From contig JAXLZT010000001.1 in assembly GCA_046350795.1 (NCBI GenBank), positions 181,780 to 245,779 on the forward strand: a stretch of DNA of 64,000 nucleotides. The letters are read 5' to 3'. Below are positions 2,552 to 6,751 of the stretch, piece by piece (the first letter of the stretch is position 1; each line of letters starts with the position of its first letter). The stretch is from Minisyncoccota bacterium. GTDB taxonomy: Bacteria > Patescibacteriota > Minisyncoccia > Phycocordibacterales > CALRHW01. The position numbers were made by a program, and so were the translations under genes. The notes under the pieces were generated by a model that worked only from the letters and a program-made list of their open reading frames with translations, had not been told where the DNA came from and searched no databases.

Positions 2552-3046
2552 TCAGACAAATCTTTTTGATGCTATATGGGTCAGACCTGTTGCGATAGCG
2601 TCAAACTCATCGTCTATTTTTGTTTTTTCTGGTGTTTTTATTAGTCTTTTTACCATGGCGATAACTTGATTTTTTGTACTCTTTCCATAACCAGTCACAG
2701 CTATTTTTATTTCCACTGGTTTATATTCATATACATTGAGATTTTTTAACGATCCTTCGTATATGATGACACCACGTGCTTCAGACACCTTCATCGCCGT
2801 CTTTTGGTTGCCACTAAAAAAGAGCTCCTCTATAGCCATATCAGTTGGTTCATATTTTTCTATCACTTTTTTTATTTCTTGACCGAGTAGGGCTAGTCTT
2901 TTTTCGTGACTTAGCTTGGCTGATGTCTTAAAGCATTCAGAAAAAACAAGCTCTTCTTTTGCTCCACCACTTTTTTCTATTATTGCTATACCCAAGCGTT
3001 CATATCCTGGGTCGACAGCTATGACACGAATATTTTTATTCTGCAT
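2552..3046 (-). CDS. ruvC: Crossover junction endodeoxyribonuclease RuvC
   Basis: 164 aa; IRVIAVDPGYERLGIAIIE N-terminus typical of RuvC RNase-H fold. Confidence 0.85.
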   Translation of the reverse strand: MQNKNIRVIAVDPGYERLGIAIIEKSGGAKEELVFSECFKTSAKLSHEKRLALLGQEIKKVIEKYEPTDMAIEELFFSGNQKTAMKVSEARGVIIYEGSLKNLNVYEYKPVEIKIAVTGYGKSTKNQVIAMVKRLIKTPEKTKIDDEFDAIATGLTHIASKRFV

Positions 3047-3563
3047 TTGTGTATACTCCCTGCACCTCGTCGTTTTCCTCGAGTTCGTTTATGAGTTTTT
3101 CTAGTAAAGCACCGTCTTCTTCTGAGATGGGCACAGTGGTCTTTGGGATCCATTCTCCGGCGGTTTTTTCAAAAGCCCAGGTTGCTGCACCAATACCTGC
3201 CAACTCAAAACCATTTAGGGAAAGTATGTGTTTTATTTCTTGAGCAGCTTTATTTCTATTGTCTGTGAGCGCGTCTATCACGAGCGCGCATCCGCCGGGA
3301 CCGTAGCTTTCATATGTTATTGATTCTAGATCGGTTGCTTGTGTTGTTGCTTTTTTTATCGCTCGCTCTATATTTTCATTTGGCATATTTTCGGCCTTTG
3401 CTCGATCGATAGCCGCTTTGAGAGCGGGTGAATTTACGTTTCCGCCACTTTTTTTGGCTTCTTGTGTGATTATTTTTGCAAACTTTGAAAAGACCTTACT
3501 TTTTTGAGCATCAGTCTTTGCTTTTTGTCTTTTTATCTGTGACCATTTATTATGTCCTGCCAT
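3036..3563 (-). CDS. YebC/PmpR-family probable transcriptional regulator, short form (175 aa)
   Basis: MAGHNKWSQIKRQKAKTDAQKSKVFSKFAKII... and C-terminal ...DEVQGVYTNAE are YebC hallmarks; about 70 aa shorter than E. coli YebC (one sub-domain apparently absent); 11-bp overlap with ruvC start. Confidence 0.8.
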   Translation of the reverse strand: MAGHNKWSQIKRQKAKTDAQKSKVFSKFAKIITQEAKKSGGNVNSPALKAAIDRAKAENMPNENIERAIKKATTQATDLESITYESYGPGGCALVIDALTDNRNKAAQEIKHILSLNGFELAGIGAATWAFEKTAGEWIPKTTVPISEEDGALLEKLINELEENDEVQGVYTNAE

Positions 3564-3587: not shown

Positions 3588-4637
3588 TTATAATAATTTC
3601 TTTGTCTTACCCCCTGGACCTTTTGCATCTATATGCAAATATCCCGCATCAGTGAGCATCCTACCACGCGGTGTTCTTTCTAAAAATCCAACCTGCAGTA
3701 GATATGGTTCATTAAACTCTTCTATTGTGGCTTGCTCTTCTGATAGTGCGGCCGCAAGAGTGTTGAGGCCCACCGGTCCACCCTTAAACTTGTTTGCAAT
3801 GATTTCTAGTATAGCTCTATCTGAAGGAGAAAGACCTACTTCGTCTATGCCTAGTAGAGATAAAGCTTTGTCCACCATTTCTTTTGTTAGAGATTGTTTG
3901 TGTACTTGGGCAAAATCACGGCAACGCTTGAGAAAATAGTTTGCTGTACGCGGTGTAAACCTGCTTCTTTTTGCAATTTCTTTTACAGCACCATCTTCTA
4001 TTTTTATACCAAGTATTTTTGCCGATCGGCGTACGATTTCTTCTATTTCTTCTTGGCTGTAATACTCGAGTCGGAAAATTCCTCCGGAAAAACGTGATCG
4101 AAGTGGGGAAGATATGAGAGCTACACGAGTAGTAGCAGATATGAGCGTAAAGAGGGGTAGCTCTAGCTGTATGGTGCGCGCAGACGGACCCTTGCCTATG
4201 ATGATGTCTAGTACGCCAGACTCCATCGCAGGATAGAGCACTTCCTCAATGGTTTTGTTGAGGCGATGTATTTCGTCTATAAAAAGAATGTCGCCATGAG
4301 AAAGATTTGTAAGTATAGATGCAAGGTCGCCTATTTTTTCTATAGCTGGTCCAGAAGTGATCTTTATCTGTGCACCGATCTCTTTTGCAATGAGGTGGGC
4401 GAGAGTGGTTTTGCCGAGACCTGGTGGGCCATAAAAAAGAATGTGTTCCGGTGGGTGATTGCGTTCGCGGGCGGCGGTAAGCAGGATGTGTAGGTTGTCT
4501 TTTATGTTTTTTTGCCCGATGTACTCATGCCACTTTGATGGACGCAGTGTCTGATCTAGGGAAGCGAGATCTTTTTCGCTGTTTTCAGAGTTTTCTTCGG
4601 CTGTTGGGGTATTTTTTTTGGCAGAAGTCTTTTTCAT
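3588..4637 (-). CDS. ruvB: Holliday junction branch-migration helicase RuvB
   Basis: Walker A LFYGPPGLGKTTLAHLIAKE, AAA+ sensor motifs; start placed at MKKTSAKK (ATG 4635-4637) rather than the upstream in-frame Met at 4688. Confidence 0.9.
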   Translation of the reverse strand: MKKTSAKKNTPTAEENSENSEKDLASLDQTLRPSKWHEYIGQKNIKDNLHILLTAARERNHPPEHILFYGPPGLGKTTLAHLIAKEIGAQIKITSGPAIEKIGDLASILTNLSHGDILFIDEIHRLNKTIEEVLYPAMESGVLDIIIGKGPSARTIQLELPLFTLISATTRVALISSPLRSRFSGGIFRLEYYSQEEIEEIVRRSAKILGIKIEDGAVKEIAKRSRFTPRTANYFLKRCRDFAQVHKQSLTKEMVDKALSLLGIDEVGLSPSDRAILEIIANKFKGGPVGLNTLAAALSEEQATIEEFNEPYLLQVGFLERTPRGRMLTDAGYLHIDAKGPGGKTKKLL

Positions 4638-4809
4638 AGCCTCATTATATACAAAAACAACACATAGCCATACACACTTGACACACATACATTTATATGC
4701 TAAGCTATTGTTGTCTTTGAAATAAAAGGGGAATTGGGAAACGCCAAGGCGAAAAGGCCTTGATTTTTATTGCCACTTATATAATATAGGTGGCCTGCGT
4801 TTCTTTGAG

Positions 4810-4978
4810 GATCCAAGATATAAATCTCTAAACAACGAAGCCCTTGTGGCTTAGTAGTATCTCTTCGGAGGACATTCTGGTTATCACCTTGTGTGATTTG
4901 CTGGGGTTATCCTTTGGGAAATATTTAACTTTTGGTACGAATATTAAAAGTGTTGTTTAGAGATTTATGCCTTGGATC
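4810..4978. ncRNA. Candidate structured ncRNA: 169-nt element closed by a 27-bp inverted repeat (2 mismatches) with internal UUCG-type hairpin; class unknown (6S-like?); alternative: MITE-like element
   Basis: gatccaagatataaatctctaaacaac (4810-4836) pairs with gttgtttagagatttatgccttggatc (4952-4978); sits in a 380-bp gene-free gap between pilB and ruvB with no ORF on either strand. Confidence 0.35.
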
Positions 4979-5071
4979 TTTTCGTAACTTTCTTTACATA
5001 ATTATTCACACGGTGGGTCTTTTTACAAGATTGTAAATTTTTAAAACTGTTTCTTAATGTGTGGTCTATGT

Positions 5072-6751
5072 TTATCGTTCCTCTTCTAGATCTATTACGC
5101 GCTGTAATTCGTCCATAGAGGTCATACCTTGAAGTATTTTTATTATTCCATCCTGTTGCATATCTAGTATATGTTGTGGTACAGCTGCTTTTTTTATCTC
5201 GCGCTCGCTAGGATTTTCTTGGACGATTTTTTCTATATTTTGATCTGTAAGGATGGCTTCATATACACCCACGCGCCCTTTGTATCCAGTAAAATTACAC
5301 TTGGTGCATCCTTTTGCCTCCCAAATCATGTTTGGATTTAGGCCTTCTAGGTAGGTTTTGTCTTCAATGCTGTTTACTATCCTATCTAGATTGATTTTTT
5401 CTTGTTCTGTAGGAGCACGCTGTCCTTTGCAGTCTGTGCAGAGCTTGCGCACAAGTCTTTGGGCCATACAGACACTGATCGCTGAGGTAATAACCTTTGG
5501 ATTTACTCCTAGGTCTATTAGGCGAGGGAAAGCGCCCGCTGCGTTGTTGGTATGAAGTGTAGAAAATACCAAATGTCCTGTGAGGGCAGCGTTGATGGCT
5601 ATCTCAGCTGTTTCATTGTCGCGGATTTCTCCCACCATTATCACATCTGGATCTTGGCGTAGAGCAGAGCGTAGACCCTCGAGGAAAGTATAGCCGTCGT
5701 CGTTGGTTTGTGTTTGCACGATGCCGGGTAGGTGATACTCGATCGGATTTTCAATCGTAATTATTTTTATGTCTGGTGAATGAATTTTTTTCAAAAAAGC
5801 ATATAAGGTGGTGGTTTTTCCAGATCCAGTCGGTCCAGTGTTGAGTATCATGCCGTTTGGTTTTGAAATTGCATTTTGTAATACAGTAAGCAGGCGAGGA
5901 TGTATACCCAAATCTTCTAATGGTACAGAGATTGCTTTTGGATTAAGTACGCGAAGCACGATAGAGTCATTGTATGCTCCGGGCAGTAGGGATGTACGAA
6001 TTTCTATTTCATCATCATTTACTTTTATGCTAAATCTTCCGTCTTGAGCTTTTCCTCGGACGTTTAGTTTTAGGTTTGAAAGAAGTTTTAGTCGAGAAAG
6101 GATGAGATTGTAAGTCTCTGTATCAAAACGGACGATGTCTGTGAGCACGCCGTCTAGTCTATATCTTAGGCGTACGTAGTTTTCCTCTGGCTCGAGATGT
6201 ATGTCTGATGCTTTGTTGGAAAGTGCACCAGCGAGCATTGTTTCTAGTATTCTAGAAATACGATAGGCTTTTTTACCACCGATATTTTCTTCTAATATTT
6301 TTTTTAAATCATCTAGTGTGGTTACTTTCTCCAAAAGCTCCAATATTCCTTCATTGGAAATATCAAGCGCACCACCCTTTGTTTCCATAGACATGGAAAG
6401 ATCTTTGTATCTATCCCATACTTTTTTTAAACTCTCTGGAGAGACAAGGTATGTGATCAGTGTATAACCTCTTTTTTGTAGTGATTCTAGCGCTGTTTTT
6501 GTTTTTTCTGTAGAAGGAGAAAGGAGGCCGACATGAATTTTTTTATCTACTATATTAAACACAGCTATTTTTGCATCGAGGGCCTCTGTCTCTTTTATGA
6601 CACGCAATGCGTCTATATTTATAGGTACTACTGAGAGGTCTAGATAGGGAATGCCATATTTTTCTGAGAGAGTTTGGGTGAGAATTTCTGCTTCGCGTCT
6701 TTTTAGCTCTTCGACGCGAGCGTTTTGTTTTTCTTCGTTAAATTCAACCAT
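5072..6751 (-). CDS. pilB: Type IV pilus assembly / type II secretion ATPase (PilB/GspE family)
   Basis: 559 aa; Walker A LNTGPTGSGKTTTLYAFL, GspE N-terminal domain, C-terminal CxxC...CxxC zinc motif (CTDCKGQ...CTKCNFTGY). Confidence 0.85.
   Translation of the reverse strand: MVEFNEEKQNARVEELKRREAEILTQTLSEKYGIPYLDLSVVPINIDALRVIKETEALDAKIAVFNIVDKKIHVGLLSPSTEKTKTALESLQKRGYTLITYLVSPESLKKVWDRYKDLSMSMETKGGALDISNEGILELLEKVTTLDDLKKILEENIGGKKAYRISRILETMLAGALSNKASDIHLEPEENYVRLRYRLDGVLTDIVRFDTETYNLILSRLKLLSNLKLNVRGKAQDGRFSIKVNDDEIEIRTSLLPGAYNDSIVLRVLNPKAISVPLEDLGIHPRLLTVLQNAISKPNGMILNTGPTGSGKTTTLYAFLKKIHSPDIKIITIENPIEYHLPGIVQTQTNDDGYTFLEGLRSALRQDPDVIMVGEIRDNETAEIAINAALTGHLVFSTLHTNNAAGAFPRLIDLGVNPKVITSAISVCMAQRLVRKLCTDCKGQRAPTEQEKINLDRIVNSIEDKTYLEGLNPNMIWEAKGCTKCNFTGYKGRVGVYEAILTDQNIEKIVQENPSEREIKKAAVPQHILDMQQDGIIKILQGMTSMDELQRVIDLEEER

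Follow-up and report, generated by a model that had tools for sequence, protein, structure and literature searches.

A previously uncatalogued structured RNA encoded between pilB and ruvB in Patescibacteria

What is encoded in the gap between pilB and ruvB of a Minisyncoccota bacterium? We studied a 64,000-nucleotide stretch of its genome (contig JAXLZT010000001.1 of assembly GCA_046350795.1), referred to here as the window, in which these two genes are separated by a region harboring no open reading frame (ORF) of 40 amino acids or more. An earlier reading of the same DNA, the original prediction, had described this gap as free of ORFs, had pointed out a pair of reverse-complementary 27-nt arms within it, and had proposed either a candidate noncoding RNA, possibly 6S-like, or a miniature inverted-repeat transposable element (MITE). 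The gap and the arms proved to be as described. The arms (window positions 4810 to 4836 and 4952 to 4978) are 93% complementary with 115 nt between them, and their two imperfections, previously counted as mismatches, are on the + strand one A-C mismatch and one U-G wobble. Judging from the sequence, we conclude that positions 4810 to 4978 (+) are the body of a stand-alone small-RNA gene, as a predicted promoter, a conserved structure, and a 3' signal are all present. The element represents a new, previously uncatalogued RNA family.

The segment from 4805 to 4985 was folded on both strands. On the + strand, its minimum free energy (MFE) is -72.1 kcal/mol, compared to -39.3 ± 4.3 kcal/mol for dinucleotide shuffles (z = -7.7, reached by 0 of 200 shuffles), and on the - strand it is -52.7 kcal/mol (z = -7.6). 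The difference of 20 kcal/mol between the strands is due to G-U pairs and gave a first hint of which strand is the RNA strand. In the model, the 169-nt body is cloverleaf shaped, the arms forming a closing helix, P1 (5' arm, 4810 to 4836; 3' arm, 4952 to 4978; both +), that encloses three branches at a four-way junction. These branches are, in order, a short variable hairpin with the sequence AAGCC-CUUGU-GGCUU (P2, 4838 to 4852), a long central helix (P3, 4856 to 4925) with a conserved core at 4869 to 4913, and a 10-bp hairpin (P4, 4928 to 4951), all on the + strand and all recovered in MFE folds. The original prediction had also placed a CUC-UUCG-GAG hairpin at 4860 to 4869. Such a local pairing is possible, but it lies outside both the MFE fold and the consensus fold, where the bases in question form the 5' strand of P3 and pair with 4914 to 4920; the UUCG is not conserved in relatives.

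Is this element found elsewhere? A scan of 185,579 genomes, one per species, with a pattern made of the inner P1 arms only identified six metagenome-assembled genomes (MAGs) of the candidate phyla radiation (CPR, or Patescibacteria), each with a single hit. In every one of them, the interior could be aligned with that of the window and contained an invariant core, AGGAC-N3-CUGGUU ... CUG-N4-UAUCCU, and the element was located just upstream of a ruvB-like ORF. A second scan, performed on metagenomes with the P3-core pattern alone, gave at least 120 loci, with about 110 true members among the matches listed. The closing helix of these members, which is outside the pattern used, reads AAAUCUCUAAGCAAU ... 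AUUGYUUAGAGAUUU. According to tblastn, the element lies between pilB and ruvB wherever the contig is long enough, always in one orientation with the exception of a single locus, L133. The ruvB gene is the neighbor in about 105 loci, with 55 to 93% RuvB identity to the window, and the element is 50 to 300 nt upstream of ruvB in all loci. The window RuvB is itself identical to that of a "Candidatus Paceibacterota bacterium" MAG (phylum Minisyncoccota, i.e., Patescibacteria). As a control, six protein clusters were picked by RuvB similarity (74 to 80% identity) and contig span only, and the RNA was present in all nine loci of these clusters.

Covariation, a check that the original prediction had suggested, was analyzed in 93 distinct homologous sequences. 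In a 42-pair model, 94.7% of the cells are paired, 30 of the 42 pairs have changed on both sides, and 427 cells are compensated, while an extended model of 50 pairs is 91.7% paired, with compensation in 36 pairs. None of 500 column shuffles reached the observed values on any of five measures, and sliding the partners by 1 to 3 columns lowered pairing to 40 to 49%. Pairs of the G-U/U-G type occupy 419 cells and A-C/C-A combinations only 63, a 6.7-fold excess in a count that omits two G-U pairs fixed by the search pattern. This excess indicates that the RNA corresponds to the + strand of the window and is thus antisense to both pilB and ruvB. Indeed, reading the alignment as its reverse complement lowers pairing to 80.7%, R1, a covariance model of the family, scores 154 bits on the + strand of the window versus 54 bits on the - strand, and the MFE is lower on the + strand in most representatives.

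The four helices contribute differently to this picture. P1, supported by the inverted repeat, the MFE folds, and covariation, comprises 24 to 26 modeled pairs, of which 20 to 22 show compensatory changes, and is 95 to 96% paired among the 93 homologues. Its length ranges from 27 to 33 bp across the family; the inner ~14 bp are conserved in sequence, while the outer part varies freely yet remains paired. Divergent, GC-richer members alter even the inner P1 with compensation (e.g., CCUCCAAACAAC / GUUGUUUGGAGG). P2 is missing in five members, and because its length varies it was left out of the column-wise covariation, so that the evidence for it consists of folding statistics (mean z = -2.6 for this segment versus shuffles). 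The core of P3 is composed of an AGGA/UCCU helix, an asymmetric C//UA loop, and an 8-bp helix with tandem U-G/G-U pairs (CUGGU/ACUGG), and it is invariant in the six genomes that were found via P1 alone. Three pairs located between its two conserved blocks covary (columns 69 to 71 with 112 to 114). The hairpin at the tip of P3 is variable, and L133 tolerates a 66-nt insertion there. P4 is present in nearly all members and shows compensatory changes in all 7 modeled pairs (mean segment z = -2.5 versus shuffles). Its base is conserved in sequence, as are inner P1 and the P3 core. No unpaired base separates P4 from the 3' strand of P1, and in the model the two could possibly stack coaxially; in the fold of the window, the junction leaves about 5 nucleotides unpaired. 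Overall, P1 and three branches of ~15, ~70, and ~24 nt were recovered in 81 of the 93 unconstrained MFE folds, for members of 146 to 176 nt. The hairpin loops are not conserved, being either stable tetraloops (CUUG, UUCG) or variable, and a non-exhaustive look for pseudoknots and loop-loop contacts revealed no conserved complementarity among them.

A DNA-level element could in principle have left a similar trace, be it a MITE, another mobile inverted-repeat element, or a protein-binding palindrome. The dimensions would fit a MITE well, ~170 bp in all, of which ~115 bp lie between terminal inverted repeats of 27 bp, and one strain variant (L001) does carry a foreign insertion of 1.19 kb only ~130 bp away. 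That insertion lies outside the element, however, and the additional copies of the arms to be expected of a MITE are missing: allowing up to 3 mismatches, the 27-mer arm has no other copy in the 64-kb window, R1 run with filters off detected a single copy in the window, all other scores being at noise level, and about 115 loci contained one copy each. The arm pattern likewise matched once per genome in just six of the 185,579 genomes. Unlike a MITE, the element is syntenic in more than 100 genomes, and none of the relatives that were sampled independently of the RNA lacked it. The flanking sequences (...TTTGAG|GATCC and GGATC|TTTTCG) share no direct repeat that would represent a target-site duplication, and phage and plasmid collections contained nothing similar. 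When viral contigs were scanned with the core pattern, a single hit (L009) was obtained, which is unrelated to the family. Moreover, the arms diverge while staying complementary and do so with the G-U bias described above, which points to selection at the RNA level on one strand. The suggestion of a MITE was therefore abandoned, and we consider a DNA element of any kind to have next to no chance of being the right explanation.

We then asked how the RNA would be expressed. All 90 members with enough flanking sequence harbor TTGACA-N16-18-TAnnnT upstream on the RNA strand, while the same pattern on the opposite strand was found in none, with 0.5 expected from shuffles. In 88 of the 90, the -10 element is extended (TGnTAnnnT, at correct spacing). 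In the window, the -35 hexamer TTGACA is located at 4678 to 4683 (+), 132 nt upstream of P1, and is followed after a 17-nt spacer by the extended -10 element TG-c-TAAGCT at 4698 to 4706 (+), with TG at 4698 to 4699 and the -10 hexamer at 4701 to 4706. This is a predicted near-consensus sigma-70 promoter with an extended -10 element that serves the small RNA, and transcription is predicted to start near 4713. The leader from promoter to P1 measures between 8 and 178 nt across members, and this variability argues that the 5' end is either trimmed or unimportant. On the other side, UUUU directly 3' of P1 (4979 to 4982, +) is the probable 3' end or termination signal. A U-rich stretch occurs at or just past the 3' end of P1 in 50 of 92 members, a perfect-stem terminator within 80 nt of P1 in 18 of 92, and many other members harbor a canonical, often bidirectional, terminator before pilB. 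An intrinsic terminator predicted on the - strand at 4852 to 4838 was discarded, as it is merely P2 read backwards.

The one inverted locus is informative in this respect. In L133 (1120 to 1400), the promoter has been inverted along with the RNA, and both have the same direction as pilB and ruvB, indicating that the promoter belongs to the RNA. This also bears on the proposal that the element functions in the sense of the pilB-ruvB transcript, as a structured 5' untranslated region or an intergenic regulator of ruvB read from the - strand. Such a proposal would be in line with the position 50 to 300 nt upstream of ruvB everywhere and with the good folding of the - strand (z = -7.6). But pairing falls from 94.7% to 80.7% in the reverse complement, R1 loses about 100 bits on that strand, the conserved promoter is directed the opposite way, and in L133 element and promoter are flipped relative to ruvB. 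We thus regard a - strand element as very improbable. Strong support for the candidate noncoding RNA of the original prediction comes from the covariation, the strand bias of the G-U pairs, and the conservation of both promoter and position.

To which family does this RNA belong? In an Rfam 15 scan of the window, only tRNAs reached the gathering threshold, and the region of the element (4600 to 5120) as well as 20 other members gave no family match at the gathering score and no consistent one at an E value of ≤10; the covariance-model search proposed in the original prediction thus places no family over the element. The best subthreshold hits over it were to unrelated eukaryotic or other families (E of ~1 to 10), and none recurred across members. 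A full-text literature search found no description of such an RNA, nor of a 6S RNA in the CPR, nor of any lineage-specific noncoding RNA in Patescibacteria. A catalytic or self-processing RNA, i.e., a new ribozyme class for which P1 would be the substrate or processing helix, might be suspected from the multihelix junction, from the small invariant internal-loop core, from the tandem G-U pairs, a motif at which metals commonly bind, and from the variable leaders, which imply a 5' end made by processing. Against this, no Rfam ribozyme family was hit at an E value of ≤10, the element shows no association with mobile or repetitive contexts, and the conserved positions lie mostly in regular helices rather than in loops. 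A ribozyme is therefore quite improbable in our opinion.

The 6S-like character proposed at the outset needs a closer comparison. 6S RNA (ssrS; RF00013) resembles the new RNA in its size (~150 to 190 nt, here 146 to 176 nt), in a long closing helix formed from both ends, in having another long helix interrupted by internal loops, and in being encoded by a stand-alone, strongly promoted, single-copy gene found across a lineage; the strong promoter of the new RNA is a predicted one. In the Escherichia coli 6S fold, as in the new RNA, a small hairpin lies 3' of the center, and our literature search found no 6S RNA for this phylum. The element could thus be the Patescibacteria counterpart of 6S RNA, binding sigma-70 RNA polymerase via open-promoter mimicry, with P1 standing for the downstream and P3 for the upstream duplex and with the region of P2 and P4 taking the place of the "bubble." Covariance models revealed no similarity in either direction. 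Rfam 6S had no hit at an E value of ≤10 on the window and 20 members, and R1, with filters off, did not exceed 3.2 bits (E > 0.6) on E. coli ssrS with its flanks. The architecture differs as well. Where 6S RNA has a large open central bubble, the new RNA has a closed four-way junction carrying P2 and P4, with a ~10-bp P4 that covaries and is nearly universal and with only ~5 unpaired junction nucleotides in the window fold. Its 5'-side element P2 is variable or absent, unlike in 6S RNA: at least five members lack it, and in at least two of them, L006 and L007, only ~3 to 5 nt then remain between P1 and P3 on the 5' side, which is too short for a template strand. In addition, P1 is nearly perfect and lacks the bulges that are reportedly typical of 6S closing stems. 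We retain 6S RNA as a minority alternative because of the similarities in size, closing helix, 3'-side hairpin, and stand-alone gene, but consider it rather improbable; the 6S-like label as such gained no support from these comparisons.

The termini of E. coli 6S RNA, AUUUCUCUGAG ... CUCGGAGAUUC (L139, 384 to 566), contain a UCUCUNAG / CUYRGAGAUU-like string that is shared with inner P1 (window 4820 to 4836 and 4952 to 4968). This likeness is short, has no support from the covariance model, and is probably a coincidence.

The position of the promoter raises another question, namely, whether the RNA acts on its neighbors. In 71 of the 90 members, the -35 sequence TTGACAT, read on the other strand, is ATGTCAA, the start of ruvB (RuvB N terminus, MSS...). 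A small-RNA -35 element written over the start codon of ruvB represents an unusually compact genome architecture. The overlap has been lost in the clade of the window and in L133, with the RNA unchanged. In the window, it is degraded to TTGACACACAT (4678 to 4688), and the old ATG at 4688 is still in frame, although ruvB appears from its sequence to start at 4637 instead. In L013, L128, L020, and ~35 other loci, a perfect extended -10 element, TGCTATAAT, is found on the ruvB strand facing the RNA promoter. It is located 5 to 80 nt upstream of P1, inside the leader, and implies opposed transcripts that overlap at their 5' ends; the window does not contain it. We also considered a ruvB-strand promoter as the cause of the conserved "TTATAGCAT" and rejected it, since it fits TGCTATAAT in one subgroup only and does not fit the window.

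These features could mean that the role of the element is mainly local, with ruvB controlled by antisense action in cis or by transcriptional interference and with pilB insulated. The promoter would occlude or collide with ruvB transcription, the leader would pair with the ruvB 5' untranslated region, and the folded body would only stabilize the RNA and terminate both convergent transcripts. Such a role would account for the -35/start overlap in 71 of 90 members, for the facing TGCTATAAT site in a large subgroup, for the adjacency to ruvB in every locus, including the inverted one, and for the bidirectional terminators between the RNA and pilB. But neither antisense pairing nor interference needs a four-helix junction with an invariant internal-loop core that persists across RuvB identities of 55 to 93%. 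Furthermore, the predicted 5' end of the RNA is ~30 nt upstream of the ruvB ATG, which would leave the ribosome-binding site uncovered, the leader varies from 8 to 178 nt, and both the window clade and L133 have lost the overlap while keeping the RNA. We consider a mainly local role unlikely, though by no means negligible.

The reading that we favor, with a probability of roughly 0.55, is that of an abundant, stable, trans-acting, and protein-bound RNA of a new family, serving as a scaffold or a decoy. Such an RNA would act in trans and be recognized through its conserved block, made up of inner P1, the P4 base, and the P3 core. Outer P1 and the 5' leader, both variable, would only protect the ends or serve as a processing (RNase III-type) or terminator stem. 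Because the -35 element covers the ruvB start codon in most members, activity of the promoter should also disturb ruvB transcription, as a side effect of the layout and not as the reason for the structure.

Several points weigh against this proposal. No known protein-binding motif was recognized in the small RNA. A near-perfect duplex of 27 to 33 bp is an expected RNase III substrate, so that the mature form may differ from the model. The near-fixed adjacency to ruvB and the -35/start overlap could mean that the main role is a local one in cis, and in the clade of the window the strong promoter is separated from the RNA by a terminator-like hairpin, described below. The promoter, the transcription start, and the 3' end are read from sequence. 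The invariance of the P3 core in the metagenome set exists by construction, as the exact pattern was used for the search; independent evidence for the core comes from the six genomes found via P1 and from the six RuvB-anchored clusters. Finally, the taxonomic labels of MAGs are unreliable, which bears on how far the family extends across the phylum.

A bolder version of the favored reading goes further and is put forward tentatively, at slightly less than an even chance. According to it, the RNA represents an undescribed class of abundant, trans-acting structured RNA that is ancestral to a large part of Patescibacteria, has a housekeeping or global regulatory function, with a standing like that of the 6S, Y, and raiA RNAs, and binds a protein partner through the conserved block of inner P1, P4 base, and P3 core. 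A near-consensus promoter throughout, strong covariation, a fixed slot, and presence in an unbiased sample make it unlikely that the RNA is peripheral. Patescibacteria account for a large share of bacterial diversity and have tiny genomes with few recognized regulators. If the proposal is true, the RNA might replace, in minimal genomes, a job done elsewhere by another RNA or a protein. It would be a concrete experimental handle in the few cultivable lineages and a test case for recombination and repair (ruvB) or for global transcription control in CPR cells, and as a new family it can be included in Rfam and in genome annotation.

The window belongs to a clade with a structured 5' leader domain of its own (~70 nt; 4736 to 4805, +), in which a stem (4736 to 4744 with 4797 to 4805) closes two hairpins. 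Hairpin A (4745 to 4762, +) came from terminator prediction, being terminator-like and followed by a U-run, and hairpin B (4772 to 4794, +) from the fold. A second, weaker promoter-like site on the + strand overlaps this domain (TTGATT at 4760 to 4765, N16, TAATAT at 4782 to 4787). The three helices are common to the window, L004, L005, and L008, and compensatory changes preserve them between the window and L004/L005, while the leaders of other members are devoid of the domain. It might serve for attenuation or as a processing signal, or it might form the second domain of an RNA of ~270 nt.

The strain variant L001, whose PilB is identical to that of the window, was seen in four samples. In its element, C4978 is replaced by T, which converts a G-C into a G-U pair on the + strand. 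Its insertion (~1.19 kb; L001 5075 to 6270, corresponding to window ~4655 to 4679) has a GC content of ~60%, compared to ~38% for the host, is located between the -35 element of the RNA promoter and the ruvB start, ~130 bp from the element, and replaces 18 bp. It carries a 221-amino-acid ORF on the strand of the RNA, for which no Pfam, NCBIfam, or PADLOC match was found, and a look for terminal repeats in the insertion revealed none.

The neighboring genes provide context only. The divergent neighbor ruvB (3588 to 4637, -; Pfam RuvB_N, AAA_lid_4, and RuvB_C) is listed as an ORF from 3588 to 4688 (-), up to the in-frame upstream ATG, but a GAGG Shine-Dalgarno sequence places its likely true start at 4637. 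The convergent neighbor is a pilB-type T2SSE ATPase gene (5072 to 6751, -; Pfam T2SSE, E = 6.6e-117), which is also the neighbor in related loci. Next after ruvB come yebC and then ruvC. The YebC/TACO1-family protein encoded between ruvB and ruvC (window 3036 to 3563) has only ~175 amino acids, likewise in related loci. Two stretches were reported by Pfam, the strongest being positions 1 to 56 of the 160-position "second and third domain" model, and this short form may be typical of such genomes.

The new RNA was compared with further known systems. A retron msr-msd RNA, in which a reverse transcriptase gene directly follows a long a1/a2 closing repeat, does not fit, as the element is followed by pilB, which ends toward it on the other strand, and no reverse transcriptase domain is found among the neighbors. 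Neither does a riboswitch or other cis-regulatory leader, since the RNA is antisense to both neighbors save in one lineage and no gene lies downstream of it on its own strand ahead of the terminator or pilB. The idea of a Holliday junction mimic for RuvA or RuvC, suggested by a four-way junction near ruvB-yebC-ruvC, is unsupported, because P2 is dispensable, junction bases are unpaired, and the arms would be A-form RNA. The RNA-OUT/RNA-IN pair of IS10 shares with this locus a strong small-RNA promoter set against the 5' end of a protein gene and a possible 5' overlap of the transcripts. Here, however, the overlap is predicted to spare the ribosome-binding site, the body far exceeds an antisense stem-loop in elaboration and conservation, and the opposed layout is broken in some members with the RNA unchanged.

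The bacterial Y RNAs and YrlA, which are noncoding protein scaffolds, resemble the new RNA in having a terminal helix formed from both ends, with conserved sequence and a multihelix junction module on top. Their conserved T-loop- and D-loop-like loops have no equivalent here, where all hairpin loops vary, and their neighbor is the Ro gene rsr, whereas the locus described here contains pilB, ruvB, yebC, and ruvC. The Rfam clan of these RNAs had no hit on the window and 20 members. In the case of the raiA motif RNA and OLE RNA, there is no similarity in sequence or structure, Rfam being negative, and the new RNA is smaller than OLE RNA, belongs to another phylum, and occupies a fixed slot. Nevertheless, it resembles both in kind, as a lineage-restricted, heavily covarying, and, by prediction, independently transcribed RNA; the function of these two was unknown when they were discovered.

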